This document shows positions 18,560-47,168 of a stretch of 61,980 nt of DNA, in pieces. Source of the DNA: an uncultured Bacteroidia bacterium. GTDB taxonomy: Bacteria; Bacteroidota; Bacteroidia; Bacteroidales; F082. The stretch lies in NCBI GenBank assembly GCA_902769815.1, contig CACXQO010000002.1:1-61980 (forward strand), given 5' to 3'. How positions within the stretch are numbered: the stretch's first letter is position 1; each line of letters begins with the position of its first letter. A program made the position numbers and the translations under genes. The notes below the pieces were generated by a model. That model was not told the DNA's origin, did not search any database, and saw nothing but the letters and a program-made list of their open reading frames with translations.

Positions 18560-18589
18560 TTCAGCTATTCCCTAAATTAATAAAACGAG

Positions 18590-19597: not shown

Positions 19598-19602
19598 AGA
19601 GA

Positions 19603-21480: not shown

Positions 21481-21518
21481 ACAAGTATTGTCTTTCTTGT
21501 TTTGATGGAACAGGGGGG

Positions 21519-22016: not shown

Positions 22017-22022
22017 CGCATA

Positions 22023-23255: not shown

Positions 23256-23261
23256 GATGTT

Positions 23262-24140: not shown

Positions 24141-24149
24141 AGTTCAAAG

Positions 24150-25373: not shown

Positions 25374-27777
25374 ATTGGAAAATAGTATCACCGATGGTAA
25401 TAGTATCGCCGTTGGAGAGCGGCACGGGCTTGTTGGTAGGCAATTCAGCGCGTGAATTGAATATGGTTTTCGTAGCCAATGGTTTAAGCATAGCTTGCGA
25501 TAAGGAGTGATCCACATAGAGCTGAGCTTGTTCTTTGGCCACCTTATTGCTCTTTTCCCATGTCATCTGAATCTCGCAACGTTCCGTCATGCCAATGGTG
25601 ACTATGTTGCCGCCCCCCGTAGCATTCATCCACTTGTGGATGGGAATGCGTTGTCCTTCTTTCACGCCGTTCTTGATGACCAGGAAGTATTTTTCAGCCA
25701 ACATTCTGACTGTGACCAAAGAGGCTCCCAAACCACCGCCATAAATGATGAAGTCAAGCAGCCTATTGAGCCACTCCCAACGTGGACTTGCTTTGCTTCG
25801 GCTTGATAGATAAAGAATGACGAATCCGATGACAGCCGACGCAATACCACCTAAGAGAGCACTTTTGACAGGGATACTCGACTTGATGGAAAGGCTAAGC
25901 GAAATGCAGATTGAGAACAGCATATAGGCGGGCAGTGAGCAGTACCACTGGATGGCATGTTCAGACACACTTGACTGCAACCAACAGAAGATGGCACCAC
26001 CCAATGCGAAGGAGGCCATACCGATGATTCCTGACAACAATGACAAGCCTAATACCTTCATTAACGATTTGCTGTCAGTTTTACGCACCCCATCGGTATA
26101 GCGGAACACTATCGACATGAAGAACCCAAGCAGCAAACCAATAGCGAAGAAGGAAGCCACCTTGGCCACGCAATCGTTGAAGATACTGTTTTGTGCTTCG
26201 CTAAGGCATTCATCAACAATGCCGCGTGCCAATCCCATAAAGACACGACCTCTACCGATAAGCTCATACACCAACCAGCTCACCAATCCAGCTACAATGC
26301 CTGCCATCGTTTGGTAACTGTCTCGCAACGTTCCTTTACTGAACAATTGTTTCCAATGTACATGATCCTGAAAACCGTCCTTGCAGTTTTGTCCGTATTC
26401 CGAGCAATGGTAGTTGTTTTGCTGCCAACACTCAACATGCATGATATGCTTGCACCGAGTCACTACCTTTTGTCCAGGAAGGATTTCCTTCCTACAGAAG
26501 TGGCAAACACGATGCGTCACGTTCTCTTCCTGCACATAGCGTTTGTAATACTTTGCCGAGAAAAGCAACGACTTAATCAAAGGGATAAGCCCTTTAATAA
26601 TGAACAAGTAACAAACGATGGTGAGAAGGGTAATCAGGAGTGCCATCAACAACTTTATCGTCCAATCAACAACATTGGGCTCGCGCTTGGGCCAAGGATC
26701 TTCCTCAGCTCCGATGGAATAAATACACTCTCCTTTGTATAAACCATCCCAAACGGCCTTATAGTTTACTCTGTTTCCCCTATAGCAGTTGTTTTCCGAA
26801 ACCCTATACGTGTAAGTGAAGTCCGCCATAGCGTTTCTGGCAGCCTGCTCCAAGCCCTCTTTCACATCTGCCATATCATTGGCAGGCAGATACTTACCTT
26901 TTCTTTCCATGATGACTGTTCCATCTTCGCGCCGAGGTTCGGTGATATTCTGTAATGTACGCGAGACCCTTTCATCTTCTCCATTACCCGTATGATAGAA
27001 GGCATACACCTGCGGAACCACTATGGAATCGTTATTCTGGTATTCGGTGACCTGAATAAAATTAATAACCTCCTCAACTTCAGGTTTCATGCTACCATCA
27101 GCGATGAGGAATAGCAAGTTCTTTCCGGGATGGTTGGCCGCTCGTACGGAAATAATTGTGTTTTGCTCGTACCCAGGCTCCTTATTGACATACTGGAGCA
27201 AATCCGAATTGGTATTGGTAAACTCAAACTCAGCCAGTTTTGCATACACGGCACCATAGAAATTCTTCGTCTGCGTACCTTGCTCAAATCGAGCGTCAAA
27301 GTCGGAGAAATTAGCCTTGGTGACCATCTCGCTCTTTGAAACCTGTTCACCATAGAATGAAAGGTAAACACAACTGTCGTGGGCACTTTCAACCAACTCG
27401 CCAATAACTTGACGTATCTGTCTCTTGCCGTCTTCGGGAATGTTGAGGTCAACCAATATGGAAATGGTATAGTCTGAAGGAATACGCTGGCCCGAAGTAA
27501 GCATTCGAATTGTTCGGCACTCGTTGGAAATCGTATCGCCGTCTTCAATGACAAGGAGATGCCGATTCATATCCTCCACGTCCAGTCCGAGCTCTTTTCT
27601 CTCGCCGTTGTCGATCTTCAGAAACAGGGTGAGGCTGTCATTCCCAATTCCATAGTCATATTGCTTATCAATGAATTGGATTCCATCCACAGTTTGGGCA
27701 CCAAGCGGCATTGCCCATACCATTAAAACCAAAAGTGCCAATAGTTTCGTGTAAGTTATCTTTTTCTTCTTGTCCAT
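25360..27777 (-). CDS. Polytopic membrane protein: signal peptide, periplasmic domain, TM, RING-H2-like zinc finger, six TM helices and a C-terminal FHA-like domain
   Basis: CHFCRKEILPGQKVVTRCKHIMHVECWQQNNYHCSEYGQNC = C-x2-C-x13-C-x-H-x2-H-x2-C-x7-C-x6-C. The C-terminal ...VTIGMTERCEIQM...LSNGDTITIGDTIFQYVEC has FHA topology. Confidence 0.7.
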   Translation of the reverse strand: MDKKKKITYTKLLALLVLMVWAMPLGAQTVDGIQFIDKQYDYGIGNDSLTLFLKIDNGERKELGLDVEDMNRHLLVIEDGDTISNECRTIRMLTSGQRIPSDYTISILVDLNIPEDGKRQIRQVIGELVESAHDSCVYLSFYGEQVSKSEMVTKANFSDFDARFEQGTQTKNFYGAVYAKLAEFEFTNTNSDLLQYVNKEPGYEQNTIISVRAANHPGKNLLFLIADGSMKPEVEEVINFIQVTEYQNNDSIVVPQVYAFYHTGNGEDERVSRTLQNITEPRREDGTVIMERKGKYLPANDMADVKEGLEQAARNAMADFTYTYRVSENNCYRGNRVNYKAVWDGLYKGECIYSIGAEEDPWPKREPNVVDWTIKLLMALLITLLTIVCYLFIIKGLIPLIKSLLFSAKYYKRYVQEENVTHRVCHFCRKEILPGQKVVTRCKHIMHVECWQQNNYHCSEYGQNCKDGFQDHVHWKQLFSKGTLRDSYQTMAGIVAGLVSWLVYELIGRGRVFMGLARGIVDECLSEAQNSIFNDCVAKVASFFAIGLLLGFFMSIVFRYTDGVRKTDSKSLMKVLGLSLLSGIIGMASFALGGAIFCWLQSSVSEHAIQWYCSLPAYMLFSICISLSLSIKSSIPVKSALLGGIASAVIGFVILYLSSRSKASPRWEWLNRLLDFIIYGGGLGASLVTVRMLAEKYFLVIKNGVKEGQRIPIHKWMNATGGGNIVTIGMTERCEIQMTWEKSNKVAKEQAQLYVDHSLSQAMLKPLATKTIFNSRAELPTNKPVPLSNGDTITIGDTIFQYVEC

Positions 27778-29381
27778 ATCTTCAAGTCTTCTAATTGTTG
27801 TTCACCATAATAGTTTTCGTCCGTGCAAAGGTTGCCATCAATGATGGGAATAGAGGTAAGAAGCCCATCGGAGGTGGAATAGACCAGCACGAACTTGATG
27901 TCGCCCAACTGTTGGGCAATGGCTTTCTTGACCGATGGAATGCTACAGTGCGTCACCATGACGAAAGCACCTATCGGATTGCAATCGACCACGTTCTCAT
28001 CATCGGTGACTTTGACAACGACATACTCCTTTACGTCTTTTCGTTCAATGGGATAGCCATAAACCGTTGAAACAAGTTCTCCGCTATGTTCGACAGCTAA
28101 CAGACCCATGTCGATGATAGCTCCATTGCTTAATTCAATACCATGGCAATTGTTACTACGCTGTTTTGCTCTTTCCAAACCGTTTCGATAATCCTCGGCG
28201 TTGAATGAATTGCGTTCCTGTTCCACCGCCCATTGATACCACTCTTCCAGCGAAAAGAGCTGTTTCATTTCAATGCGTGAGTTGATGGTACCGTCGTGTT
28301 TGAATGTAAACAATCCCATTTCTTGTTGGGGAGTAAGGATGTCGACCACAAGAGCCGTCAGGAAGTTAGGGTGCGATGGATGCTTCAGTAGGTTCTGCAC
28401 GCTACAGTCGTTGTTGCTGAAAAACACACCCAAGCCTGGATGCGAGTGTACCCAACAAGTCAAATCGTATTGTATATCAGTTTCCACTCGGAGTTTTTTC
28501 AGCTTCTCCCTTACATCCATCTTGATTTTTCCGCCAAAATTCAATTCATATTCCGTAAATACGGCATCGTTGCCCGGAAGCACAACGTGTTCCAAAGTGA
28601 CATAGTAATCGTTGGCTTTCTTGTCTTGAACCCAGCGACCCAACACCATGCAGCCGTCTTCCTTAGGATTTTCAGGATTACGGAGGTCATTAGCATACAT
28701 ATTATATATTTCTTTGATGCATGCTGTCTTGATGTAAACTTGTTTCACCGCCGAGTCATCGACAAAGCTATTACAGTCAATCTCCATATAATTGTCATTG
28801 CCAATTACATCGTCAATGTTTTGTTTACGCTGTATAGCAGTAGTCTTGTGGCGAATAACGATATTAGAATCATCAATATCTGTTTCTTTCCCTATTGTCT
28901 GTACCAGAGTTGGCTTTACTCTTTTCTTGCGTTTGCCGATGAAGACGAGGATAATGATAATAACTAACAAACCGACAACGCCAAGTCCTGCCAGCAAAAG
29001 AAGTCGTTTTATTTCCGCCTCATGCTTTCTTTGTTCTATCTCATTTCTGACCATAGTCTTCATCTCTATGCAGCAAAGCTCATTAGTTAGCCAATTATCT
29101 CCCTCCTTTACTATCTTGATTTCATCGCAGGAAGGGAAAATTTGCAAGAGAAAATTTACCACAAATGTATCTAGCTTTTTTTCTTTATCGGTATCAGATA
29201 GTGTATCGATATCAGGCAGTTGACCCACTGTGTCTAGGTATTTTTCAAAATTGGCGATGATAATTTCCTTATTCACCGATCCGTCTTCGTTTTTCTGTAG
29301 GTCAATTTGAGCCCATACACCACCCCAAAAGCCAAGGAATGTCAATAGGGCTATAATGGTTTTAATATGCTTTTTCATCAT
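27756..29381 (-). CDS. Membrane-anchored JAB/MPN (JAMM) metallopeptidase
   Basis: Signal peptide MMKKHIKTIIALLTFLGFWGGVWAQ. TM helix LLLLAGLGVVGLLVIIIILVFIG followed by KRKKR. JAMM motif WVHSHPGLGVFFSNNDCS (HxH-x7-S-xx-D). Confidence 0.8.
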   Translation of the reverse strand: MMKKHIKTIIALLTFLGFWGGVWAQIDLQKNEDGSVNKEIIIANFEKYLDTVGQLPDIDTLSDTDKEKKLDTFVVNFLLQIFPSCDEIKIVKEGDNWLTNELCCIEMKTMVRNEIEQRKHEAEIKRLLLLAGLGVVGLLVIIIILVFIGKRKKRVKPTLVQTIGKETDIDDSNIVIRHKTTAIQRKQNIDDVIGNDNYMEIDCNSFVDDSAVKQVYIKTACIKEIYNMYANDLRNPENPKEDGCMVLGRWVQDKKANDYYVTLEHVVLPGNDAVFTEYELNFGGKIKMDVREKLKKLRVETDIQYDLTCWVHSHPGLGVFFSNNDCSVQNLLKHPSHPNFLTALVVDILTPQQEMGLFTFKHDGTINSRIEMKQLFSLEEWYQWAVEQERNSFNAEDYRNGLERAKQRSNNCHGIELSNGAIIDMGLLAVEHSGELVSTVYGYPIERKDVKEYVVVKVTDDENVVDCNPIGAFVMVTHCSIPSVKKAIAQQLGDIKFVLVYSTSDGLLTSIPIIDGNLCTDENYYGEQQLEDLKIWTRRKR

Positions 29382-29384
29382 CTG

Positions 29385-30569
29385 TCAAATTGAGATTCTT
29401 TTATTACCTTTTTCTTTCATGGTCTTATCAACACTTTTCTGTAGGGCATTCTTGCCTTTTTGCTCCACGGAATTCATGGTTTGGTTGGTTTTGCTTTTAA
29501 TGGCTGACTGCGCTTTTCTTTTGGCTATACCTTCTGCTTGTTTTGCAGCATCTTGCTGCATCTGCATCATGCTGCGCTGGGTACGGCGGTTGCGTATGGT
29601 CTGCATCACTTGGCCACCCACAAAGAGTAACACCGCCAACAAAGCACCACCGATAAGCATCCACATGTTACGTTTCTTCTGTTCTTCTTCCTTAGCCTTG
29701 ACAGCCTGAGCCTCACGCTCCTGTTCCTTCTTTATCGAATCCTGAATGGCCTGTTGTTGCTGTTGAATCTTTTTATCGTATTCAGCTTTCATCGCCTTTT
29801 CTTTGACATCATATTGGGCGAGAATGTCATCTATCATCTTAACGATGTTGTCGTCCTTTACTTCGCTTCGCTGTTTTCTCAGTGCCCTCACCTCCTCTGT
29901 CAGATACTCCTCAAAAGGATATTCCTTCTGGCGTGACAACAACTCAACAATGTTATTGGCACGCTTGATGGCAATGGCATCAGTTTCCGAAAGGCTCTCG
30001 ACTTCTTCTTCAATAATCTCCACTGATGTTTGGGTTACAGTAGGCTGAACAGCCGTCGTCTTTGTTGCAGGAATTGGGTCTATCTTAACTTTCAACTCAC
30101 CACAACTGGCAAAAACCTTATAATGCAATTTCCTTTCATAGTGTGCCAAAAAAACGGGTATGGACAATATAGTACTCTCGTCATCTATCAGCTCAAACGA
30201 GATGGATGGCTGCTGCTGCACAAGATAATAGCCGTAGCTAGTTGACTTTCTCCGAAGGCTGGCTGGCACGGTGAAAGCCTTGATATCATCACCCTTAAAC
30301 ACGGTACCGTCGCTATAGACACCAATATGATCAAAAAACACCACGGCCACCTCTTCCAATTTGTTGTATTTGCGGGCATAAGTCGGTCCCAAGATCTTGC
30401 TTGCGCTACTAAAGTTAAGCACAGCTACACCGTCCTCTATGTTCACATCGTATGTGATGGTAACACGGTCGCCAGAAGGAGATTCAAGCGTTTCGGTGAC
30501 CTTGTTGGCCATTAATGTGCTGCATAGCATTAGTGCTATCCACAAACAAATGAATTTACCACTTTTCAT
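29385..30569 (-). CDS. Exported protein with a coiled-coil and a C-terminal TM anchor. Function unknown (membrane-complex candidate).
   Basis: Signal peptide MKSGKFICLWIALMLCSTLMA. Lys/Glu/Gln-rich coiled coil. TM helix MWMLIGGALLAVLLFVGGQVM followed by a basic tail. 4-nt overlap with the upstream gene. Confidence 0.6.
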   Translation of the reverse strand: MKSGKFICLWIALMLCSTLMANKVTETLESPSGDRVTITYDVNIEDGVAVLNFSSASKILGPTYARKYNKLEEVAVVFFDHIGVYSDGTVFKGDDIKAFTVPASLRRKSTSYGYYLVQQQPSISFELIDDESTILSIPVFLAHYERKLHYKVFASCGELKVKIDPIPATKTTAVQPTVTQTSVEIIEEEVESLSETDAIAIKRANNIVELLSRQKEYPFEEYLTEEVRALRKQRSEVKDDNIVKMIDDILAQYDVKEKAMKAEYDKKIQQQQQAIQDSIKKEQEREAQAVKAKEEEQKKRNMWMLIGGALLAVLLFVGGQVMQTIRNRRTQRSMMQMQQDAAKQAEGIAKRKAQSAIKSKTNQTMNSVEQKGKNALQKSVDKTMKEKGNKRISI

Positions 30570-31627
30570 TTCTGTGAATTGTAGTATTTCGTGATTCTGT
30601 CGTAGTAATCAATAATTCCGTCCTTATATTTGTTCTGTTTTTTCCATTCAGCTGCATGGCTCCTGCATGTTTTGTCAGTGCAACATTTATACATGGCTTT
30701 AACTTGCAGCATTTCTTCCTTGGTGAGTTCCTTTTTGGGATAGACTTTTTCCTGATACAAGTCATCAAATGCATCATAGATTTCCTCCAATGTCAGCTTG
30801 CAATATTTACAGTAATGGTTGAAAGTGTGTTCGTCAGGATTACCACAGTCGGCTTCTTTAAACTCGATGTCGTCGAGTTGTTGCTTCAATTCATTGTATT
30901 TTCTGTATTTGAAGCTTTTTGCTGGCCATTGTTGCAATTTCAAATTGATAGCAAGGCGGAGGTCACTCACCTCATTCTTATAAGGCTGTTCCCTTTCCTC
31001 CAACGAGGGTTTGTGCTTCGGGTTGTTGCAGAATGTCAGGTGTGATATGACCTCAGCAATGGAGTCGCACGACTTCTTTATGGCAGGATAGCCCTCATCA
31101 GGTGTAAGTTCAACGGAGATGATAAGTTTTTCAACATGCTTCTCCATCAATGCCGCTTTCTTGGAGCATTTCTTTATAGCCATATAGAAAGGCAGCTTGA
31201 TTTCGAGGGTCTCATCTTCTGTCATTTGCAGATGACTGATTCGATAGTTGGAGCTATTGGGAGCCAGTCCCACCACATCTCTGCCCAACTGCTCACAGTA
31301 GTCGGTGTAACGCGGTTTCTTCACGGGATAGTTCCAATCATAGACAACGCGGGGATTCTTAAGACCACGCAGTTGCTTTTCATCAAAAGAACGTCCAAAC
31401 AGAAAGAGCATATTGTTGGAGACCTCATTCGGATTTATCACTTCCACCATGATGTCCACCCTTCCTTGGGCATCCGGCTCACCCATAGTGACATTGATAT
31501 TGACATACCCTAATTCAAGGCTCTTTTGATTGTCGTCCTCATTGAGCACAATTTTGTATTCGCCATCAGCAAAGACAGAAAGTGCAGTAAGTAGGGTTAG
31601 CAGTATGGTAAAAATGGTTTTCCTCAT
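30566..31627 (-). CDS. Secreted protein of unknown function with a Cys-rich C-terminus
   Basis: Signal peptide MRKTIFTILLTLLTALSVFA. C-terminal CGNPDEHTFNHYCKYCK...YKCCTDKTCRSH. 4-nt overlaps with both neighbours. Confidence 0.6.
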   Translation of the reverse strand: MRKTIFTILLTLLTALSVFADGEYKIVLNEDDNQKSLELGYVNINVTMGEPDAQGRVDIMVEVINPNEVSNNMLFLFGRSFDEKQLRGLKNPRVVYDWNYPVKKPRYTDYCEQLGRDVVGLAPNSSNYRISHLQMTEDETLEIKLPFYMAIKKCSKKAALMEKHVEKLIISVELTPDEGYPAIKKSCDSIAEVISHLTFCNNPKHKPSLEEREQPYKNEVSDLRLAINLKLQQWPAKSFKYRKYNELKQQLDDIEFKEADCGNPDEHTFNHYCKYCKLTLEEIYDAFDDLYQEKVYPKKELTKEEMLQVKAMYKCCTDKTCRSHAAEWKKQNKYKDGIIDYYDRITKYYNSQK

Positions 31628-32289
31628 ATTACAAGTTTTTTGGGCAGTGTCTTTTTGGGCTTGGACGTATCTTGCTGTTCAATGACAGGCTCTTGGGGAT
31701 GTGGCTTGGGTTTGTCGGCTTCGACCTGTGCAAAGTGTGTCCAGCCATTTGGTTCAGCTTCTTCGCGTACCCATTCCGCTACATTCTGGTCTTCAGGATA
31801 AGGATAGGTGTTGGCAGCGTGGTAGAGCTTGTACTTCAGGTAACGCTCCACACGCAGAATAAGGTCTTTCAAGGAGGCCATCACGCCCATCTCCTTGATG
31901 GTGAGGCAGACATGACCCTTGAAACTGCCTGAATAGCGGATGTTGGGATGCCATACATTGGTAAGGAAAGTAAATATAGGATTACCATCAGCCGACGGGT
32001 AGTTGTTGGGCAGCACTATGCTCATTTTATGCAAAGTACCGAATACTGGCTTACGTGGTATGGTGGAGCCTTCCACACCGATGATAGACTTGACGCGATA
32101 CCAGATTTCGTATTCGGTGGGAATACCCAAGCTGTTCTTCTTGCGGATGATATAAGAAATGGAAGGCTCGCGGGGATTCGCTTCCTTGCGCTTGGCGCAG
32201 AGGGTGTCGATATCCTTCCACTCAATCCAGAGGCGGGCGTTGCGCCCTGTTAGCTCTTTTTGGTTGAAGTTATTTATTATTTCATTCAT
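31624..32289 (-). CDS. E2-like ubiquitin-conjugating enzyme (UBC fold)
   Basis: LPNNYPSADGNPIFTFLTNVWHPNIRYSGSFKGHVCLTIKE: HPN motif with the catalytic Cys at canonical UBC spacing. Likely start MNEIINNF at 32289. Confidence 0.85.
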   Translation of the reverse strand: MNEIINNFNQKELTGRNARLWIEWKDIDTLCAKRKEANPREPSISYIIRKKNSLGIPTEYEIWYRVKSIIGVEGSTIPRKPVFGTLHKMSIVLPNNYPSADGNPIFTFLTNVWHPNIRYSGSFKGHVCLTIKEMGVMASLKDLILRVERYLKYKLYHAANTYPYPEDQNVAEWVREEAEPNGWTHFAQVEADKPKPHPQEPVIEQQDTSKPKKTLPKKLVI

Positions 32290-32309
32290 AGCTGATATTA
32301 TTATGGGAT

Positions 32310-32636
32310 TCAACCCGCGATGGGAACCGAAACAAGGTGCAGGTGGTCGCCTGGACGGATGCCATAGTCCATGAGGCATTGCTCGCGACCGTTCTCATCC
32401 TCAAATTCCAGGATTTCCGACTCGCCACCTTCTTCCATCACCTGACCCAACAGATACTTCACGGGATTGCCGCCGCCATCTATCTTAGGCAGCTCAAATA
32501 CCTGCACAATGCTGTTGATTTGGTCGCGGATGGTCTTGTTGGGGTCGTTAACTTTCACTTCCACTTCCTCATACGAAGTGTTGTCGATAGTCAAATGAAT
32601 GATGAATTCCTCATCGAATACTTGTTCGTTTTCCAT
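32310..32636 (-). CDS. Ubiquitin-like beta-grasp protein (YukD/EsaB-like) ending in Gly
   Basis: 108 aa. ...CLMDYGIRPGDHLHLVSVPIAG-stop. The C-terminal Gly codon (GGT) was verified on the DNA immediately before the TGA. Confidence 0.65.
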   Translation of the reverse strand: MENEQVFDEEFIIHLTIDNTSYEEVEVKVNDPNKTIRDQINSIVQVFELPKIDGGGNPVKYLLGQVMEEGGESEILEFEDENGREQCLMDYGIRPGDHLHLVSVPIAG

Positions 32637-32683
32637 GATTATTGTATGTTTAATTGTTAATTGTTTAACTGTTTAATTGTTGT

Positions 32684-33745
32684 TTACCAGATCCACGCGC
32701 CGCGAGGTTGGTTATAGTTCGGGCTGCGATATTGTTCAAACTTGTTCTTGAAGACAATGAGTTGATAGGCATCTTCAGAGATGGGTTTCGGCTCGTTCAT
32801 TCCGTAGCGGTAGAGTGCCAATTCATATTTCTTCTTTTCTGGGTCAATATGGATGACAAAATCCGTTTTAGTATCGGGGTGGATGCCGTAAAACTTATCG
32901 AATACCGCACGAATGGCTTCGTCTTCAAACCAGAAGTAGGCTATATATTCCGACTTCTTGATGTGCCATTTCACCGCCAGCTTCTTTGGCTTGCCCGCTT
33001 CGTGGTAGTTGAGTAACCCACCATCGTGCAGCTTGTCATGAGTGCCATCGTAAAGAGTTTCCTCGATGTAGTCCAGTTCGGGCTTTGTCTCTTGTTCTTC
33101 CTCCGTGTATTGTTGCCACTTCTCTTCATCCTTGTCCCAATGTCTGAACATCGGTAAATAGCGGTAGGTGAACTGCTTCATATAGTTGTCGAAGAGGTCG
33201 CGGGGGGGGAGGCTGTTGGTGGAGAGGTTTTGTTTAGCCGATGGAATTTGTTCTATTAATTGGTTACAATATTGGTGAAGCGTTTGTCCTGAATAGAATG
33301 GTAAGAAATCCTCCATTTCGATTTCTGTTAAGATACCTTGTAAGCAATCTATAATTACGGATTTATTTCTGCCATGAAACCAAATGGCAACTTTTCCGTA
33401 TGGTGCCATACCGACTACAATGTGACTGAATGAAGTGTTTTCATCCATTTCATAATAGTTCCATTTCTGTATCATAAGGTCGACAGGTAAAGTTGCCTCG
33501 ACTTCATAGAACTTTTGTTCTGTTATAGCCAACCATAATAAGTTAAGTTTTGTCGGCATAGGAAAATCTTCACGCAAAGGCAGTACTTCAGAAATAACAT
33601 CTCCCCATTCACCGTAATACGGTAATGCCTTTGGTATTTCTATTGCCTCATTTTCAGAGTACCATAACAAGCCAAACAATGTGTCTGTTGGGTACAATTT
33701 TGGGGCGTTTCCAGAAACTTGGATTGTATATTCAGTATTATCCAT
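32684..33745 (-). CDS. Hypothetical protein downstream of the Tle1-like effector (immunity or accessory candidate). No signal peptide.
   Basis: 353 aa. 8-nt overlap with the effector gene stop. Trp/Tyr-rich. Contains a C8 run in the coding strand (33202-33209). Confidence 0.55.
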   Translation of the reverse strand: MDNTEYTIQVSGNAPKLYPTDTLFGLLWYSENEAIEIPKALPYYGEWGDVISEVLPLREDFPMPTKLNLLWLAITEQKFYEVEATLPVDLMIQKWNYYEMDENTSFSHIVVGMAPYGKVAIWFHGRNKSVIIDCLQGILTEIEMEDFLPFYSGQTLHQYCNQLIEQIPSAKQNLSTNSLPPRDLFDNYMKQFTYRYLPMFRHWDKDEEKWQQYTEEEQETKPELDYIEETLYDGTHDKLHDGGLLNYHEAGKPKKLAVKWHIKKSEYIAYFWFEDEAIRAVFDKFYGIHPDTKTDFVIHIDPEKKKYELALYRYGMNEPKPISEDAYQLIVFKNKFEQYRSPNYNQPRGAWIW

Positions 33746-35786
33746 TTATTTGGATTGATTTCGTTCCATATGCTGCCATCTCATACATATAGTGTACATT
33801 ATTCGTGTGGTCACCTGACAAAGTTTCATCTCCGTCATACATTATTCTACAAATATTGGCATCATTATCGTAATTACAGTTATTGCCAAAATTTCCCCAA
33901 TTCTTTTCCAATTTTGTGAAAGGAAACTTGCTGTCTTTATCTTCGTGAGATTTGTCTTCGTCAACCTTACTTCTAAAATGAAATATTTCACATGATGAAG
34001 TGAAATGAAGGTATTTCAGACGAAGTTTTCTATAAAAAGCTCCAGAATAACCACCATTGGGCATTAACCACACTCTTTGTCCAGCAGGTTTTTCAATTTT
34101 GCTAATCATGCTCTCTCCAAGTGTCTCTAAATCATCAGGGATACAATAAGGATCTGTTTTTTCTTTGAAAAGCCAATTGATACCGCAAGTCTCAACACTT
34201 TTTTTCATCATATTCAATGGAATATTACCATATCCACCTAAAGCATATCTTTTGAACTTGATTTCGTTTGGCCAATCTGCAACCCTTAAAGTATAAGGCT
34301 TCCCGTCTGGGGCAAGGTCCATAGTGTTATTTGAAGAACCATCAAACCATTCTTTTCCGACCCACCCTAATGTTGCTAAAGTATTAGGAGACAAAATCTC
34401 TTTTTGTCCTGCTTCGTTCATTGGATTATTAAGAAACATTTTTGCACGGTCTTTTGACTTTAAGTAAAAGAATCCCAAAACCTCGAATAATTTATTGCTT
34501 TTTATGAAATGTTCGAGTTTTCTTGGAATGAATTTATATAAAACAATGTCCATGTCTGTCTTGGTAACATAACCACCACCAACATCAGAATGGCAGCCAG
34601 GAATGATGATTTCCATAGCGTTTTCGGGCATTGTTTTTCCCAAATTTACCAAAGCGAAGTTTTCCCTAAACTCATCTGCAGCACATATATGGCAAGTATG
34701 AAGTACTCTTTTGTTGTGTGGGGAATACAATCCATAATCATGAGCATTCATATAATGGAAATTGCCATGATAATTGTTCCACCAAAAGCCTCTGTAAGCC
34801 AAACTTAATGCATTTGTCCATCCATCCTTTTGTTTGAGGAAACCAATAGATGCGACTGTGTCATAAATTCCTAAGAAATCGACCGTTACATTGTCTCTTT
34901 TAATATATACACCCTTCCCGTCTTTCACTAAAAATTCGGTTTCCATAAAAGGTAATCTTCCGCTTTTCTCATCGTATAATGCTTTGGCTTTGGAAGTTTC
35001 TTGTCCAAATTCTTTTTCTCTATCAAGTCTTTTGCCAATATCACGGGTTACCAATTCAGAAAACAAACGGGCGCAAGTAGAACCACGACTAAAACCAAAC
35101 ACATAGAAATGATATTTTGTATCATCTGAGAGAATGGAAGTGTTTGTCTTTAGATAAGAATAGATATGTTTTACGGCTTTACTTACAAGTGCTGTAACTC
35201 CCGTTTTTCCTAAGCCGAAACCTAAACCATTGATATTACCTTCATTATGCGTTTCTCCTTGTGATGTTTGTATATCATTGGCCCCGCTTCCTTCAATAAA
35301 TAAGTTATGGTATAGATTGTCACTGGTATTAAACTGATACTTTAACAGACTATGTAAAATTGCGACATTGGAATAACCATTTTCAGAGTCTGCATGCATA
35401 ACATTCGTGTTGATTTTGGTTTCCGCTTGAAACTTGTCTATTTTTTCATTGACTATTTCCAAGTCTTTCTGCATGGCAAGTATTTGTTCTGTCTGTATTG
35501 AATTAATATTCAAGCCATCAAAGGAACTTGTTGCCAAAGCAATTGCCGTCATTAATTCCTTCTGTCGTTGTAGTAATCCTGAAATATTCTCATAGTTCTT
35601 TTTTAGTGGCAGAGTTTTTTCTGACGATATTTTTTTGCTTTTATAGGTGTGAAAAAGCGCAGTTTGTATCATGTTGTTGTTTGTTCCGTCAAAGAATACA
35701 CCAATATGAACATCTTTTACTTTTTGAGTTTCAGAAGGATTCTGTTTTTCAGGCTCTTCTGCATCTACATAATTACTTGTACCCAT
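33738..35786 (-). CDS. T6SS phospholipase effector, Tle1/DUF2235-like alpha/beta hydrolase
   Basis: N-terminal HIGVFFDGTNNN and nucleophile elbow FGFSRGSTCAR (GxSxG), both DUF2235 hallmarks. 682 aa. Confidence 0.7.
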   Translation of the reverse strand: MGTSNYVDAEEPEKQNPSETQKVKDVHIGVFFDGTNNNMIQTALFHTYKSKKISSEKTLPLKKNYENISGLLQRQKELMTAIALATSSFDGLNINSIQTEQILAMQKDLEIVNEKIDKFQAETKINTNVMHADSENGYSNVAILHSLLKYQFNTSDNLYHNLFIEGSGANDIQTSQGETHNEGNINGLGFGLGKTGVTALVSKAVKHIYSYLKTNTSILSDDTKYHFYVFGFSRGSTCARLFSELVTRDIGKRLDREKEFGQETSKAKALYDEKSGRLPFMETEFLVKDGKGVYIKRDNVTVDFLGIYDTVASIGFLKQKDGWTNALSLAYRGFWWNNYHGNFHYMNAHDYGLYSPHNKRVLHTCHICAADEFRENFALVNLGKTMPENAMEIIIPGCHSDVGGGYVTKTDMDIVLYKFIPRKLEHFIKSNKLFEVLGFFYLKSKDRAKMFLNNPMNEAGQKEILSPNTLATLGWVGKEWFDGSSNNTMDLAPDGKPYTLRVADWPNEIKFKRYALGGYGNIPLNMMKKSVETCGINWLFKEKTDPYCIPDDLETLGESMISKIEKPAGQRVWLMPNGGYSGAFYRKLRLKYLHFTSSCEIFHFRSKVDEDKSHEDKDSKFPFTKLEKNWGNFGNNCNYDNDANICRIMYDGDETLSGDHTNNVHYMYEMAAYGTKSIQING

Positions 35787-35899
35787 ATCAAAACTTTACT
35801 GCCTCCATAAGAAAATTAGATTACTAAATTTGTCATAACTTTACGAAAAGTCCTGCATATTATTTGAGTTTCAGAAATCATGCTTATTTATAAATACCT

Positions 35900-36385
35900 T
35901 CAATTCAATAGTTTAACAAAAGGATTATTATTGTCATCTATCGAAATATCTAATTCACTATCATTTATAAAAGTAATCCTCATAAAACGATTCTCAAGTC
36001 TTACATCGGAGATTATTTCGATAAACATATATTCCTTTTCGATCTTTGAAATATCTAAATTGATTAATAGTATGTTTGTCTCGCAGATTACAATAACATA
36101 TCTTTCATAAACAATCATATACAAAAAAGGAGTATCTAAATCCCAACAATTAAAAACGCCATTATTTGAATTCAGTAAACAAAAATGTTGGTCTATTCCT
36201 ATTCCGTATATATTAGAATCCAATAATTCAATAGTTGGTTCGATTAAATTACTATTCCAAGAGAACTTATAATTATGTTCTCCAATTGTAATAAAACCAA
36301 AACAATTGTTACATCTGTTATCTTTCTCAGAAAACAATGTAGTGGCTTCTAACGAATAATACTCTTTTTCTGTTAGTCTTTGCAT
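35900..36385 (-). CDS. Candidate immunity protein for the PAAR-like toxin
   Basis: 161 aa. Starts 4 nt after the toxin gene stop. Very AT-rich. No recognisable family. Confidence 0.45.
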   Translation of the reverse strand: MQRLTEKEYYSLEATTLFSEKDNRCNNCFGFITIGEHNYKFSWNSNLIEPTIELLDSNIYGIGIDQHFCLLNSNNGVFNCWDLDTPFLYMIVYERYVIVICETNILLINLDISKIEKEYMFIEIISDVRLENRFMRITFINDSELDISIDDNNNPFVKLLN

Positions 36386-36389
36386 AATT

Positions 36390-37316
36390 TTATTTTTTGT
36401 TATATGTTTTAGGAATGACGCTTGTTACTTTAGGTATAGATTTCATATCGCCGTTAATATAAAAGAATCCAACTTCAATCCATCCAGACTCGCCTATTTC
36501 AACCTTTCTTACTTTAGTAATCCCTTCTTTGATTTTTTTCTCTTCAATTTCTTCTGTATTAATCGCTTGGTCAAATATATCCATCAGTTGTTGTTCATTT
36601 GTGATTCCCAATTTACTTAAAACCTCTTTGTTTTGTTTTGATCGAGCAGCATTTTTTTTGGATGAGGTAACTTTTCCAAAAAAGTAATTGAATTTATTTA
36701 TATCAACCGTGTAGTTTCCAGCATCTACAATGACAATGGTTCTCCCATCTTCTTCTATTTCTTTCAACTTATACTTTTTAGTATTTATTATTTGATTAAC
36801 ACTTGCATTATCAGATAACAATGAATCAGTTTGATTAGAATTTTTTGATGGAATCTCATTCGACTTTAATTCCACGAACTTCGTTGGACTGTAACCAAAA
36901 TCGTCCTTTCCTTTCTTATTAACATACCATGTCCCCTCACCCACCTGCCCATCCGTTACCAAGCTAATCGTCCCGCCCCACATACATTGACAAGTGCTTG
37001 ATTTTAACAAGGCGGGTTGCCCTTTGATGAGATAGTCCATCTTGCCACCCATCCATGGCATAGGGGTATTGTGCAAACATGGAGTAGGGGTAAGCGTACC
37101 CAATGCCGCAGCCGTAGCCGCTGCTGTCTGAGGAAAAGCCAAGGAGCGACAAAGACCAAAAGGAGCCAAATTGACCATCGTTTTATGGTCACTGATATTG
37201 GCCTGCGGCTGTCCTGTTAAGTTCATTGTTCTGGTAGGAAGCACGGTTAACTTAGCTGGGCTTGTACCCATCGTGCATTTCATCATCGCACCAGAACAAA
37301 CGTATGAGTCTGACAT
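36390..37316 (-). CDS. DUF4280 (PAAR-like) spike-tip protein with an uncharacterised C-terminal extension of about 180 aa (candidate toxin)
   Basis: MSDSYVCSGAMMKCTMGTSPAKLTVLP...LAPFGLCRS...STCQCMWGGTISLVTDGQ is the DUF4280 pattern. The C-terminal part has no motif I can name. Confidence 0.7.
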   Translation of the reverse strand: MSDSYVCSGAMMKCTMGTSPAKLTVLPTRTMNLTGQPQANISDHKTMVNLAPFGLCRSLAFPQTAAATAAALGTLTPTPCLHNTPMPWMGGKMDYLIKGQPALLKSSTCQCMWGGTISLVTDGQVGEGTWYVNKKGKDDFGYSPTKFVELKSNEIPSKNSNQTDSLLSDNASVNQIINTKKYKLKEIEEDGRTIVIVDAGNYTVDINKFNYFFGKVTSSKKNAARSKQNKEVLSKLGITNEQQLMDIFDQAINTEEIEEKKIKEGITKVRKVEIGESGWIEVGFFYINGDMKSIPKVTSVIPKTYNKK

Positions 37317-37317
37317 A

Positions 37318-38646
37318 TTACTTTAAAGAATAAACCAATCCAATCTCTACACTCGGAATAAACACTCTGCCGCCTGTATTCAACAAACCCGCCTTGCGCA
37401 ATGGCGTTCCTTCGAAGTGCCCGTTGTTCACCGTACCTAATGACAATATGGAATAGTCAAGCTTCAAGCCAGCAGTCAACAGCAAAGGCGTACCCTTAAA
37501 TGGCACATATACGCCAAAGGCAGCATTACCCCAGAGATTGAAACGACTGATGTCAGCAGCAGCGTTTTCATGATAGTCTCCGCCACCAAAACCTAACACG
37601 GGAATGTCTTCCAAGGTCACATCCCATTGAGGATAATATCCTTTTAAAGTATAAATGCCCGAGGAATTGAAGTTAGAAAGCAAATTGATAGAGGGTGTGA
37701 CACCTATCTTGAAATAGGCAGTCATACGGCCTTTGGCAGGTTGTCCAATACAAAGGCGGATTGGAATGTCAAGATAGGTCAACGTAAGTTGTTCTTTGAG
37801 ATCATTTGTAGACAAACTTGCTTGATAGGCATCGCCATCAATGTCGGTGCAGTCTGTTTTTTCAAAAGCCATATCCTGATGTGCCGCCATCGCAAACCTA
37901 CGCATACCCAAACCCGCTTCTATCGAGATTGGGAATAATTCGGCCAGGCGAGGTGTGCCATAATAAACGGCTACACGTCCACCTAATCGAGTGTCTTTTG
38001 CCCAACTATCGTCAACGCTGTTACCCATAAAGGTTGGACCCATTCCCAATTCCAAACCAACGACTGGTGTCTTTTCAGGCTGTTCACCAGCTTGAACTAC
38101 GACAACTTTCCGTTCTGGCTTTGGCTTGGCAAGCAAGGATAGCCGCTCATCTTCCAGAGATTGTTTTTCAGCCAACAATGACTGTTTTTCAGCCAGCAAT
38201 GATTGCTGCGCTGTAAGTAACGAGTCGTAACGAGTCTGCAATTCCAACCGTTGTGCATCAAGTTTGAGCAACTCACCATTGAGGCTGTCTTTCTGTTGGT
38301 TGAGACTGTTGATAGTGGCTGCTTTCTCGGCAATTTCTTGACGCAATTTCTTCACATCTGCATTACCTCCATTCACCTCGCTGCGTAATTGCTTAAGCTC
38401 GGCATTGGCAGCATCGAGACGGTTTTGTAAAGACTTAACATCAGACTGTAGAGAGTTAACTCTTGCTTGCATTTCATCAACAACTTGGTATTTCACCGAT
38501 TCAATCTGGTCGCTAATGGTGCCGTGATAGTATTTCACTTCCACCGTCTTGCCGTCGCGGGTCTTGCCCTTTACAGTTGACAGAGTCTGGGCCTGCACGA
38601 ATAAGGCAGTGCCTATCATAATGAGTGTCAAAAAGATTTTCTTCAT
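37318..38646 (-). CDS. Outer-membrane beta-barrel-like protein with an N-terminal coiled coil
   Basis: Signal peptide MKKIFLTLIMIGTALFVQAQ. Heptad-rich segment including the tandem LLAEKQS LLAEKQS (21-bp repeat at 38161-38202). Gly/aromatic beta-rich C-terminal half. Confidence 0.6.
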   Translation of the reverse strand: MKKIFLTLIMIGTALFVQAQTLSTVKGKTRDGKTVEVKYYHGTISDQIESVKYQVVDEMQARVNSLQSDVKSLQNRLDAANAELKQLRSEVNGGNADVKKLRQEIAEKAATINSLNQQKDSLNGELLKLDAQRLELQTRYDSLLTAQQSLLAEKQSLLAEKQSLEDERLSLLAKPKPERKVVVVQAGEQPEKTPVVGLELGMGPTFMGNSVDDSWAKDTRLGGRVAVYYGTPRLAELFPISIEAGLGMRRFAMAAHQDMAFEKTDCTDIDGDAYQASLSTNDLKEQLTLTYLDIPIRLCIGQPAKGRMTAYFKIGVTPSINLLSNFNSSGIYTLKGYYPQWDVTLEDIPVLGFGGGDYHENAAADISRFNLWGNAAFGVYVPFKGTPLLLTAGLKLDYSILSLGTVNNGHFEGTPLRKAGLLNTGGRVFIPSVEIGLVYSLK

Positions 38647-38658
38647 GTCATTATGGTT

Positions 38659-40896
38659 TTATTGGATGACGATTTTTTCAATTTTGCTGCCCCTGCTGTT
38701 GGTGAGGCGAATCACATAAATACCTTCCGGAAGGTTTAGGCTCAAAGATGCCTGATTGCCCACAATGGTTTGACTTTGAAGAAGCCGTCCGTCAAGGGCA
38801 TAGATGGTCAGCATGGCCTTTTCATTGTCGTTATTGACAACAGAGATGATCTCACCGATATGCGACGGGTTGGGATAGACTGACAAGGAAACAGGACTTT
38901 GACCATTGATAACGATTTCTTTGCTGAATGCTCCACAAAAAAGGTAGCCTTCTGTGTCCTCATTAAAACTAACATACACTTTGTAGCTGCCGTTGTCCAA
39001 ACCTCTAGCTTGATAATAATATTGATAATTGGCTCCTTCAATTCTATTTCCATCCTTGTACCATTGGTACTTATAGCTCTCTACAGGATTGGGATAAATG
39101 AGGATATAGTTGTCTTTCTTGACGATTTCATTGAGGGTGCTGGCATCAATAAAGGTATTAACGGTCACATCCATCTCCAGTTGGGTAAAACATCCTGTCA
39201 GAAAATCTGTCACTGACGCTAATATTTGGTGTTGTCCAGCGGTAGCCCATAACACCTTGATGTGGTCGTCTTCTATGGTCACGATAGCTGTGGAATCGGA
39301 GACTTGCCAAACAATAGAATCGTTTTCAATACCTGAAATAAAATACTCACTTTCTTGGTTTGTGCAGATGTCGTTATCACCTATCAAAGCAAATCCATCC
39401 ATATTATTGACTATTATCTGGACGGAATTACTATAACTGTTTCCCCAGAAATAGGACACCACGAAACGCAACCACCATCCGTTAAAGCTTGCATCCAACG
39501 GTTGGATTTCATATTCAATGAATTCTTCAAAATCGGGTTGTGCTGAGAGTTGCCACCCCTTATGCAATGCAAGCAAATGGTATTCATAATCAGGTTCAGT
39601 CAAATCAAGCACATCACCCGCACAAATTGGATTTGGTGTTTCAATGTCACCAACAGCCCCCTGCTTATGAACAAATATGGCTTTGACCATCACATCATAT
39701 GCAGGCATTTCAAAGGTGTTATTCTCTGAAATAAGAACCCAATCTGTCGAGTCATTTACATTATATGCCGACAGGGATTGTAGTTCGTAATCTTCATCAA
39801 TTTCAATAGTAATGCTGATGATAGTGTTTTCCTGTGCCATACTTGGTTCAACAGCCACACTTCCTCCATCGTTATATACGACTTCGATATTATATATAAT
39901 AGGGTCAGTCGTAAAACTCTTCTCTTCGCCGTATGCAATCCCTATACCGTTTATGGCGTATGCCCTGACATAATAGGTGGTTCCAGGTTGAAGATTTGTC
40001 ATATCTACTGTATAGCTGCCTGTTCCCGAGCCATTGCTCGAATAGGTATCGCCATCAATAGTCGGATTAGGACTCGTGCTCCAACAAATTCCGCGATCGG
40101 TCACATTTGCATTGCCATCGTGAATGACTTCACCCCCTCCTCTGGCACTTGTCATCCCAATATTCGTCACCTCTGATGTTATCACCGAAGGCAAGGTCTG
40201 TTCCTGAATGGTTGTAAATTCCATTACATCACTATATGCAATTCCTTCGCTGTTTCTCGCGTATGCTCTGACGAAATAAGTTGTGTTTGGATTGAGATAG
40301 AGAATGTTTACCTCGAATTCGCCTAAAGTTCCTGAACAACTCTGATGGACATCGTTTGGATATTGAGGTTCTCCTGTAGTATTCCAACAGACACCTCTTT
40401 TATTAATAGGAGTACCACCATCATCAGTCACTTTGCCAATAGCCTTGGCAGAAGTTTCATCGATATTGGTGATGCTGGTAAGAATTACTGTAGGCATGGT
40501 GGCCTCAACAAATCCCGACACCTGCACATCAAGAATTGCTCCGCCACCTTCATGGTGAATGATACCATGATAATCCCCTACGGGCAGTTCGGCCATTAGA
40601 CGAACATAAAGAGTTACGGGCTGATTGACAAGTGTATCTTCCGCAACAGATATCTCTATTGTTTGGGAATAATCGTTTCCGTTGACAGAGATTTCAAAAT
40701 TATTAGGCGCGTTCACAGTTACCTGTTCGCCCTCAAGTTCTTGCCCTGCCAAATTATATGTTTGAGCGATTGAAGGCTCTTGTCCAAAAATAGTGTTTAG
40801 ACCATTAATTTCATTTGGATAGGCCGTAAGTATCTGTGCTTTTGCCCAAACCGTTATCAGCAGTACAACAAAAAGTAATAGTAATTGCTTCTTCAT
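38659..40896 (-). CDS. T9SS-sorted (Por C-terminal domain) multi-domain surface protein
   Basis: Signal peptide. Repeated modules (...DDGGTPINKRGVCWNTTGEP / ...HDGNANVTDRGICWSTSPNP). C-terminal LSVYPNPS...IYALDGRLL...GIYVIRLTNSRGSKIEKIVIQ. Confidence 0.8.
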   Translation of the reverse strand: MKKQLLLLFVVLLITVWAKAQILTAYPNEINGLNTIFGQEPSIAQTYNLAGQELEGEQVTVNAPNNFEISVNGNDYSQTIEISVAEDTLVNQPVTLYVRLMAELPVGDYHGIIHHEGGGAILDVQVSGFVEATMPTVILTSITNIDETSAKAIGKVTDDGGTPINKRGVCWNTTGEPQYPNDVHQSCSGTLGEFEVNILYLNPNTTYFVRAYARNSEGIAYSDVMEFTTIQEQTLPSVITSEVTNIGMTSARGGGEVIHDGNANVTDRGICWSTSPNPTIDGDTYSSNGSGTGSYTVDMTNLQPGTTYYVRAYAINGIGIAYGEEKSFTTDPIIYNIEVVYNDGGSVAVEPSMAQENTIISITIEIDEDYELQSLSAYNVNDSTDWVLISENNTFEMPAYDVMVKAIFVHKQGAVGDIETPNPICAGDVLDLTEPDYEYHLLALHKGWQLSAQPDFEEFIEYEIQPLDASFNGWWLRFVVSYFWGNSYSNSVQIIVNNMDGFALIGDNDICTNQESEYFISGIENDSIVWQVSDSTAIVTIEDDHIKVLWATAGQHQILASVTDFLTGCFTQLEMDVTVNTFIDASTLNEIVKKDNYILIYPNPVESYKYQWYKDGNRIEGANYQYYYQARGLDNGSYKVYVSFNEDTEGYLFCGAFSKEIVINGQSPVSLSVYPNPSHIGEIISVVNNDNEKAMLTIYALDGRLLQSQTIVGNQASLSLNLPEGIYVIRLTNSRGSKIEKIVIQ

Positions 40897-40918
40897 TTGT
40901 TATTATGTTTGTTGATTA

Positions 40919-42976: not shown

Positions 42977-42979
42977 GGG

Positions 42980-43387: not shown

Positions 43388-43460
43388 GATTCAAATATGT
43401 TTATGTTAATAACTATGGTATAGCAGTAGCGTTCAAACCACAGTCATGCTATGATATCTA

Positions 43461-43853: not shown

Positions 43854-43890
43854 GATTATAAGGTTCGTTTTAGATTAATAAACCAGTGAA

Positions 43891-46304: not shown

Positions 46305-46378
46305 ATAGTGCTGATTTCCAGCTACATTGATGAAACGGATAATAACCTTGCCAAACTGTATGTGGCAATTATCGCTTG

Positions 46379-46386
46379 CAAAGGTA
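46379..46386 (-). promoter_or_regulatory. Bacteroidota -7 promoter box (TACCTTTG on the minus strand) upstream of the NusG-like gene
   Basis: Plus-strand caaaggta, about 75 nt upstream of the ATG at 46304. Confidence 0.45.
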
Positions 46387-47136: not shown

Positions 47137-47168
47137 AACTTGTATAGTTTAATTGTTAAACACTCATT

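Follow-up and report, generated by a model that had tools for sequence, protein, structure and literature searches.

The locus described here raises the question of whether a small bacterial protein that is translated with glycine as its last residue is a ubiquitin-like modifier (Ubl) that can be conjugated to other proteins, and what such a modifier would do inside a type VI secretion system (T6SS). Its gene lies on the minus strand of a 61,980-nt stretch of contig CACXQO010000002.1 (assembly GCA_902769815.1; Bacteroidales F082), called the window below, and all coordinates are window positions. An original prediction, made from the DNA letters, had described the product as a conjugatable YukD-like Ubl operating within a T6SS. 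To our knowledge, Ubl conjugation in bacteria was until now linked to sulfur chemistry and, in recent years, to anti-phage defence. We consider it probable that the protein is a conjugatable modifier of a ubiquitin-type cascade acting at the T6SS. This is the best reading because of its predicted fold, its conserved glycine, the nearby genes for an activating (E1) and a conjugating (E2) enzyme and the conserved arrangement of the locus.

The Ubl and its terminal glycine

The Ubl gene (Table 1) has 108 codons and is translated as MENEQVFDEEFIIHLTIDNTSYEEVEVKVNDPNKTIRDQINSIVQVFELPKIDGGGNPVKYLLGQVMEEGGESEILEFEDENGREQCLMDYGIRPGDHLHLVSVPIAG, with the N-terminus MENEQVFDEEF and the C-terminus LMDYGIRPGDHLHLVSVPIAG; the tail HLHLVSVPIAG is followed directly by a stop. 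Read on the minus strand, the last codons are ATC GCG GGT TGA, and Gly is residue 108 in a Pro-Ile-Ala-Gly-stop ending, as the original prediction had read it (I-A-G-stop). The two motifs it had picked out, LMDYGIRPGDHLHLVSV and EEGGESEILEFEDENG, are both found in the translation, and the distance of 20 nt to the E2 gene is correct as well, with a gap at 32290-32309 and an E2 gene that begins at 32289. The window holds a single copy of the Ubl.

Searching 5.8 billion proteins returned 439 homologues of the Ubl, and among the matches listed all 120 close homologues (72-94% identity) end in PIAG. We then compared 80 Ubl loci with 10 kb flanks, taken from reference genomes in the families Prevotellaceae, Muribaculaceae, Bacteroidaceae and Rikenellaceae and elsewhere in the Bacteroidales. 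The orthologues end in PIAG and a stop in 78 of them, in AIPG and a stop in one, and in PIAG-GSKK in one (L032). Whether homologues keep the terminal Gly had been proposed as a check on the idea, and 79 of the 80 orthologues do so with the stop directly behind it. The stop codon itself varies among the loci (TAA in 56, TGA in 14 and TAG in 10), and therefore termination directly after Gly is itself conserved. The same Ubl is also found in a metagenome-assembled genome labelled 'Bacilli bacterium' (L008, JAFVUY010000043.1), which probably reflects a binning error and not transfer beyond Bacteroidales.

For the structure, AlphaFold (AF2) required a diverse alignment. The model obtained with close homologues only was discarded (predicted local distance difference test, pLDDT, 43.6), while 44 diverse family members yielded a model with a pLDDT of 81.3 and a predicted TM-score (pTM) of 0.67. 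Its topology is beta1-beta2-alpha1-beta3-beta4-beta5. Save for a few plexin Rho-GTPase-binding-domain entries, the top 50 Foldseek matches in the PDB are ubiquitin- or Ubl-fold domains (E about 3e-4 to 3e-3, TM 0.5-0.75), led by the Ubl of TBCE, FAT10, the UBL of USP15/USP11, Caldiarchaeum ubiquitin, ubiquitin variants and NEDD8. The beta-grasp fold suspected earlier is thus supported by prediction, in the form of a ubiquitin fold with ubiquitin and Ubl neighbours.

At the level of sequence, the profile of the family shows a local alignment to residues 51-70 of ubiquitin (EDGREQCLLDYNVQPGDHLHLI is one aligned side). After the aligned HL(V/I) strand both proteins have six residues, LRLRGG in ubiquitin and SVPIAG in the Ubl. 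A single ubiquitin scores E=0.83 against the Ubl profile, which is not significant, and we count it as a local resemblance only. In the PDB the profile also matches poly-ubiquitin (E=1e-8), a score inflated by the repeats of that protein.

The label 'YukD/EsaB-like', in contrast, did not hold up. Pfam YukD (PF08817) is unmatched even at E<=10, and no Pfam, NCBIfam or PADLOC model matches the Ubl at all. Structures of YukD, EsaB or EccD are missing from the top 50 Foldseek matches in the PDB. When the family alignment was compared by hhalign, ubiquitin reached 55% probability and B. subtilis YukD (its sequence checked against 2bps/9qks) 13% over 18 columns, both in the last strand only. The gene context is not that of type VII (ESX/Ess) secretion either; the neighbours are those of a Bacteroidota T6SS (TssB/C, Hcp, VgrG, ClpV, TssK). 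Membership of the YukD family was accordingly rejected.

A ubiquitin-type gene set in a T6SS operon

The E2 carries an HPN motif and a catalytic cysteine, and its residues H114, P115, N116 and C128 are invariant in 79 of 79 orthologues. It matches Pfam UQ_con with E=6e-6 (26.3 bits, cut-off 27), and its nearest PDB entries are the eukaryotic UBE2K and UBE2N, with which HPN and Cys align. Ubl-E2 fusions with a Gly-Gly junction occur naturally in two family members, P0226 (BLAST-confirmed in L083) and P0242 (read by eye); in L083 the fusion gene is followed by a JAB-like gene.

The E1 shows a GAGALG nucleotide loop, the DFDQIEISNLTR motif, a CYEC motif and Cys245 (RTGCADV) at the crossover-loop position of small E1s. 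The loop and Cys245 are conserved in the 72 sequences compared, and the best PDB relatives are UBA7, MccB, SAE2 and UBA1/6. An alternative start at 25517 was rejected in favour of Met49 of the long open reading frame (ORF), at 25373, because sequence conservation sets in only at about residue 66 and codons 1-48 are shared in overlap with the upstream gene. The span originally given for the E1, 24150-25373, is thus borne out.

Two further components had been missed by the original prediction, whose E1 and E2 stand. One is a membrane-anchored JAB/MPN+ metallopeptidase with a perfect JAMM motif (E241...H312-S-H314-x7-S322-x2-D325, HSHPGLGVFFSNND) that is invariant in 51 of 51 orthologues. Its N-terminus is signal-like and one transmembrane (TM) helix is predicted. 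The JAB domain profile finds the Caldiarchaeum Rpn11-like structure 6fjv first (E=1.1e-4), followed by yeast Rpn11 and CSN5 (to 5e-3); against Pfam Prok-JAB the protein scores E=0.035 and is missed at normal thresholds.

The other is an 805-aa protein with a predicted signal peptide, a periplasmic N-domain, a TM helix, a cytoplasmic RING-H2-like finger, another four to six TM helices and a C-terminal FHA domain. The finger follows the pattern C-x2-C...C-x-H-x2-H-x2-C...C...C, with an unusually spaced last ligand pair (C-x6-C), and all eight ligands (C425, C428, C442, H444, H447, C450, C458, C465) are invariant in 74 of 74 sequences. Scanned alone, the FHA domain scores E=3.2e-5 and 24.7 bits, above the Pfam cut-off of 20.7. 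The TM bundle and cytoplasmic domain of this protein are laid out as in the T6SS protein TssN. The locus thus appears to encode a Ubl, an E1, an E2, a deconjugating peptidase and a candidate ligase (E3), with both peptidase and ligase predicted to be anchored in the inner membrane.

This ubiquitin (Ub) module is part of a T6SS gene array. From 51729 down to 15483 every gene is encoded on the minus strand, and neighbouring genes overlap or are only a few bases apart. The operon begins with ClpV, TssB, TssC, two Hcp, a NusG-like protein, a TssB-TssC fusion, two further Hcp and VgrG, and continues with a protein bearing a type IX secretion (T9SS) sorting tail, a coiled-coil protein, a PAAR-like DUF4280 protein, a Tle1-like effector and DUF2931. 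Then come the Ubl, the E2, two envelope proteins, the JAB (541 aa) and RING-FHA (805 aa) proteins and the E1. A 292-aa protein, TssK, a gp25/TssE-like protein, a 625-aa protein, a glucosaminidase-LysM protein, a Ser/Thr kinase and a WG-repeat protein form the end.

Table 1. Features of the T6SS island, in window positions
Feature	Position	Strand	Basis or remark
Bacteroidota-type T6SS array enclosing the Ub module	15483..51729	-	Pfam/NCBIfam scans
Ubl, ubiquitin-fold protein, predicted mature as translated	32310..32636	-	108 aa, ATG start, PIAG-stop
UBC-type E2, 221 aa	31624..32289	-	HPN motif, catalytic Cys128 (WHPNIRYSGSFKGHVCL)
Module protein with signal peptide, probably periplasmic	30566..31627	-	76/80 loci, about 30% identity; no family match in Pfam/NCBIfam scans
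Module protein with signal-like N-terminus, coiled coil and C-terminal TM helix	29385..30569	-	76/80 loci
Membrane-anchored JAB/MPN+ (Rpn11-like) metallopeptidase, 541 aa	27756..29381	-	JAMM motif, TM 122-153
Multi-pass membrane RING-FHA protein, candidate E3, 805 aa	25360..27777	-	TM prediction, FHA scan, Zn ligands
ThiF-type E1, 407 aa from Met49 of a long ORF	24150..25373	-	Pfam ThiF E=8e-52
292-aa protein	23262-24140	-	68/80 loci
625-aa protein	19603-21480	-	No family match; TssF is a guess from position and size only
Glucosaminidase-LysM protein (peptidoglycan hydrolase)	18590-19597	-	Closes the operon with the kinase and the WG-repeat protein
Ser/Thr protein kinase, distal operon end	17075..18559	-	Pfam Pkinase E=1.6e-37
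WG-repeat protein	15483-17030	-	
Separate TssB and TssC	47590-48960, 48981-49445	-	
NusG/KOW (UpxY-like) antiterminator	45648-46304	-	Mid-operon, overlaps the start of the TssB-TssC fusion
TssB-TssC fusion	43891-45672	-	593 aa
Fibronectin-III protein with T9SS C-terminal sorting domain	38659-40896	-	Between VgrG and the PAAR-like gene
NikA/MobC mobilisation genes, island edge one	14751-15107	-	
Schlafen/AlbA_2, primase-helicase, excisionase-like and integrase genes, island edge two	53301-60256	-	

When the window proteins were compared by tblastn with the 80 loci and their flanks, E2 was present in 79, E1 in 73, the RING-FHA protein in 73, JAB in 75 and the two envelope proteins in 76 each. 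The T6SS genes themselves were found in fewer loci (VgrG 64, Hcp 59, PAAR-like 57), and the Tle1-like effector is variable (20). The best-conserved proteins of the locus are those of the Ub set, with median identities of 75% for E2, 72% for the Ubl and 71% for E1. The T6SS setting of the original prediction therefore stands, with the module inside the T6SS cluster and its arrangement kept in 68-79 of the 80 loci; of the 'conjugatable YukD-like Ubl in a T6SS' it is the YukD-like part that was lost.

In the canonical Bacteroidota T6SS-iii, TssN-R make up the membrane complex, and the cytoplasmic ubiquitin-like domain of TssN resembles that of EccD and has been proposed to dock TssK and the baseplate (PMC10781749). 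In the present locus none of the large ORFs matches a T6SS membrane-complex family in Pfam or NCBIfam, a comparison with family models and not directly with TssN-R, and by TM prediction the sole membrane proteins present are those of the Ub module. Neither ThiF nor ubiquitin is mentioned in the papers that define the GA1-GA3 architectures. Therefore the T6SS locus appears to have an architecture different from the canonical TssN-R type.

The array is flanked by mobility genes, at one edge NikA/MobC and at the other a Schlafen/AlbA_2 protein, a DUF5906/DUF3854 primase-helicase, an HTH_17 excisionase-like gene and an integrase. By its gene content the T6SS island is an integrated mobilisable element. 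No Ubl homologue was found in plasmid or phage collections.

Several side observations concern the T6SS genes. The 593-aa 'TssC' is a TssB-TssC fusion, as its residues 35-162 align with a free-standing TssB-like ORF of L088. It stands beside separate TssB and TssC genes, so the operon has two sheath sets; there are four Hcp paralogues. An antiterminator gene lies in the middle of the operon (Table 1). The fibronectin-III protein with the T9SS sorting domain is present in only 2 of the 80 loci, so it is probably an insertion or variable cargo.

The Ubl belongs to a wider family. When 1.84 billion representatives were scanned exhaustively with HMMER, 125 members were found, with about 111 domains whose C-terminus can be aligned. 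The Gly is terminal to the domain in about 73 and one residue off in several more; the domains without it are mostly the first of tandem pairs. Only 20 stop exactly at the Gly and 53 continue past it, into TIR domains (Ubl-TIR, di-Ubl-TIR, Macro-Ubl-TIR), into an E2 (P0226, P0242), into domains without an assigned family, or into short peptides with a G-[YG]-[AG]-C-P-[IV]-P or G-C-P-P motif. Other fusions are TIR-DUF4280(PAAR-like)-Ubl, STAND-Ubl and ADP-ribosylglycohydrolase-Ubl (fusion representatives P0124, P0125, P0134, P0143, P0147, P0142, P0146, P0162, P0181 and P0196). That the longer members are read-through artefacts was considered and rejected, because they continue into genuine domains (TIR, E2, DUF4280) and have genuine gene contexts. 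Fusion to TIR, Macro, STAND NTPase, ADP-ribosylglycohydrolase and DUF4280 gives the family an NAD/ADP-ribose conflict theme.

Most family members extend beyond the Gly, and therefore the ready-made end is specific to the T6SS-core clade. The conserved Gly is thus a trait of the family, while being born mature would be a property of the T6SS-core clade and cleavage would be needed elsewhere. The earlier statement that no processing is needed accordingly applies to the precursor in the window and fails across the family, where most members carry post-Gly sequence.

Additional Ubl-X paralogues occupy the effector slot of the same T6SS module in L084, L087, L005, L009 and L012, often beside a radical-SAM/SPASM gene. 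A Cys-Pro peptide directly after the Gly (G-YACPIP..., G-CPP...) is seen in L084 (34-1858), L087 (1420-3692), L088 (10001-12172) and L012 (8388-8819), and in the first three of these the Ubl paralogue adjoins a radical-SAM/SPASM gene. This looks like the maturation of ribosomally synthesised and post-translationally modified peptides (RiPPs), with a ubiquitin-fold domain as leader or carrier. L089 (6981-8168; L089/L090) encodes the Ubl-TIR protein P0147 alongside a TIR-FHA protein, with no detectable T6SS genes.

The proposed cascade and its alternatives

A working cascade is the best reading of these data because of the fold, the free Gly under selection, the intact motifs of E1, E2, RING and JAB, the synteny and the natural Ubl-E2 fusions. 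In such a cascade the ThiF-type E1 would adenylate Gly108, probably with formation of a thioester on Cys245, and the Ubl would be handed on to Cys128 of the E2. The membrane RING-FHA protein may steer ligation onto inner-membrane substrates, from which the membrane Rpn11-like JAB could take the Ubl off again. Because of the operon position and the lack of another recognisable membrane complex, the T6SS is the expected site of action. The T6SS itself is most likely the conjugation target, and the modification might act by controlling assembly or firing, or on effector loading. The locus also encodes a Ser/Thr kinase, whose orthologue in L087 lies directly upstream of, and adjacent to, the Ubl-E2 pair. 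Together with the FHA domain this suggests, by analogy, phospho-dependent control of Ubl ligation, in which a phospho-threonine input would pass from the kinase to the FHA domain of the RING protein.

A number of findings weigh against this interpretation. The tail of the Ubl is Ala-Gly rather than Gly-Gly. The E1 has no separate catalytic-Cys domain, and its second-best PDB relative is MccB, which adenylates a peptide and does not conjugate proteins. The E2 falls 0.7 bit short of the Pfam cut-off, Pfam RING families match the candidate E3 at E=8e-4 to 0.07 only, all below their cut-offs, and the FHA match of the full-length protein is likewise sub-threshold. In L088, another T6SS, an ADP-ribosylglycohydrolase-Ubl gene occurs with a radical-SAM gene and no E2 was detected in the following 3.6 kb, so that not every family member works through an E2. 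Finally, the whole island is mobile, and part of the conserved synteny may therefore reflect co-transfer and not function.

We considered whether the Ub module could be an independent conflict or anti-phage cassette, similar to Bil, Bub and the cyclic-oligonucleotide-based antiphage signalling system (CBASS) or to tri-ligase systems, that merely rides on the island and does not act on the T6SS. The family fusions to TIR, Macro, STAND and ADP-ribosylglycohydrolase are typical of conflict systems, the Ubl-TIR locus of P0147 (L089/L090) lacks detectable T6SS genes, the island carries an integrase and mobilisation genes, and the known bacterial Ubl cascades are antiviral (PMC10557695, PMC11601603). 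We nevertheless regard this as unlikely. The module is wedged between the VgrG/PAAR/effector genes and those for TssK and TssE, on one strand and with overlapping genes, and this position is shared by loci of several families. It also supplies the only membrane proteins of a T6SS in which no membrane complex is recognisable, while PADLOC is null for Ubl, E2, JAB and RING and the phage and plasmid collections are unmatched. A non-covalent structural role in secretion, like that of YukD/EsaB, EccD or the TssN domain, would make the Gly incidental and let E1 and E2 serve elsewhere. It could draw on the EccD-like ubiquitin-like domain of TssN with its proposed baseplate docking (PMC10781749), on the fact that TssN was not detected at the locus in the Pfam and NCBIfam scans, and on the similarity of the C-terminal strand motif to that of YukD. 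It is very unlikely, however, given a Gly and stop kept in 79 of 80 orthologues through three different stop codons, the co-occurrence with E1, E2, RING and JAB that are catalytically intact by motif, the Ubl-E2 fusions, and the failure to match Pfam YukD or to find YukD or EccD structures among the top Foldseek matches.

A third kind of function, as a carrier for other chemistry, strikes us as highly improbable. Here the Ubl would serve as a ThiS/MoaD-like thiocarboxylate sulfur carrier or as a RiPP-like scaffold or leader with MccB-style adenylation, and indeed the E1 counts MccB and MoeB/ThiF among its best relatives and the paralogous Ubls with post-Gly Cys-Pro peptides adjoin radical-SAM/SPASM genes. 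But in the window no radical-SAM, sulfurtransferase or cofactor-biosynthesis gene lies near the module, an HPN-Cys E2, a RING and a JAB play no part in such pathways, and the Ubl itself has no post-Gly peptide. We would give just as little credence to the Ubl being a T6SS-secreted cargo or toxin by analogy with BfUbb of Bacteroides fragilis. It is a small protein whose gene borders the variable effector region, the family includes Ubl-toxin and PAAR-like-Ubl fusions, and BfUbb reportedly sets a precedent as a secreted antagonistic ubiquitin homologue in Bacteroides (PMC5705921, PMC11467351). Unlike polymorphic effectors, though, the Ubl ranks with the best-conserved genes of the locus (median identity 72%) and is strictly coupled to a cytoplasmic E1 and E2. 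No immunity-like partner stands out, the upstream gene being DUF2931 in 57 of 80 loci and the downstream neighbour the E2.

Within the preferred reading of a conjugatable modifier acting at the T6SS, covalent attachment might be a working step of the secretion machine and not a side-regulator, a proposal that we hold only tentatively and think doubtful. In one version, free Ubl would be ligated to effectors or to spike or baseplate proteins as a loading or docking tag, and the Ubl-toxin, PAAR-like-Ubl and Ubl-X genes of the effector slot would then be hard-wired equivalents of the ligated product. In the other version, the conjugated Ubl would provide in trans the beta-grasp docking domain of TssN. 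In both versions the RING-FHA protein would read the kinase signal and the membrane JAB would recycle the tag.

Full-text searching of the literature brought up no article that connects a T6SS with an E1/E2/Ubl cascade. This cluster or a related one may have been mentioned earlier in the 2011 Mol Biosyst article of Burroughs, Iyer and Aravind, which reportedly proposes that YukD-like Ubls might undergo conjugation in certain prokaryotic systems. The locus presents a complete predicted cascade as a conserved, interleaved part of a secretion machine on mobile elements of gut and rumen Bacteroidales. Action of the cascade on the T6SS, if true, would introduce a new principle by which a contractile weapon is controlled or loaded, and would be the first case of a membrane RING and JAB apparently standing in for, or decorating, a missing membrane complex. 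A Ubl that needs no processing, together with the existence of cultured carriers (Bacteroides hominis Tbg-374, Xylanibacter muris PMUR and Palleniella intestinalis PINT), makes for a simple test bed. With it one could ask how signalling of the ubiquitin type worked before eukaryotes, phospho-dependent FHA-RING ligation included.

Comparison with known systems

Complete prokaryotic E1/E2/RING/JAB/Ubl systems are an accepted kind, mostly defined computationally (PMC3417536, PMC7159879), and the ubiquitination system of Caldiarchaeum has reportedly been reconstituted biochemically (PMC5654768). By prediction the present module has the same five components and an HPN-Cys E2 in common with the Caldiarchaeum subterraneum operons (Ub, E1, E2, a small RING and an Rpn11-like JAB) and the 'tri-ligase' systems of bacterial conflict islands (Burroughs/Iyer/Aravind 2011; Kaur et al. 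2020), and Ubl-E2 fusions occur both in these systems and in the family of the window Ubl. The best solved relative of the JAB is the Caldiarchaeum Rpn11 homologue, and the Ubl has Caldiarchaeum ubiquitin among its top matches in structure. However, RING and JAB are here predicted integral membrane proteins, the RING protein also carries an FHA domain, and the module is embedded in a T6SS operon and does not stand alone. Caldiarchaeum ubiquitin is reportedly a precursor processed by Rpn11 (PMC6043591), while the window Ubl has 108 aa with insertions, an Ala-Gly end and no propeptide.

Bil, Bub and CBASS demonstrate that bacterial Ubl conjugation is real and serves phage defence (PMC10557695, PMC11601603). 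Like Bil (BilA-D), Bub and the Cap2/Cap3 proteins of type II CBASS, the window locus combines a predicted E1 and E2 with a beta-grasp protein that would be conjugated through its C-terminal Gly and with a JAB-type peptidase in the operon; one- and two-domain Ubls are common to these pathways and the family described here. In Bil the peptidase must reportedly first expose the Gly, whereas in the window Ubl it is already terminal. The E1 and E2 are closer to eukaryotic enzymes in PDB searches, and the context is a T6SS and not a defence island; the papers on those pathways do not mention T6SS. PADLOC 2.0 (2023, which may lack Bub models) leaves the Ubl, E2, JAB and RING-FHA proteins unmatched, and its match to the E1 covers only the adenylation domain shared with Cap2.

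With YukD/EsaB, the N-terminal Ubl of EccD and the TssN domain, the window Ubl has in common a predicted beta-grasp at the membrane or baseplate interface of a secretion system. Those domains are non-covalent structural parts and, unlike the window Ubl, have neither an E1 and E2 nor a C-terminal Gly tail.

Proteobacterial T6SSs are controlled by threonine phosphorylation through PpkA, PppA and Fha1, and RNF8, CHFR and Dma1 are eukaryotic FHA-RING ligases. As in the former, the T6SS locus has genes for a Ser/Thr kinase and an FHA domain, and as in RNF8 and CHFR, FHA and RING reside in one polypeptide. Unlike in the PpkA/PppA/Fha1 arrangement, no phosphatase was identified in the T6SS locus and the FHA domain sits on a multi-pass membrane RING protein, through which phosphorylation would be coupled to Ubl ligation. 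As far as its genes tell, the system is thus set apart from those known by its lack of recognition by defence models, its pre-matured Ala-Gly Ubl, its membrane RING-FHA and JAB proteins and its embedding in the core of a T6SS.

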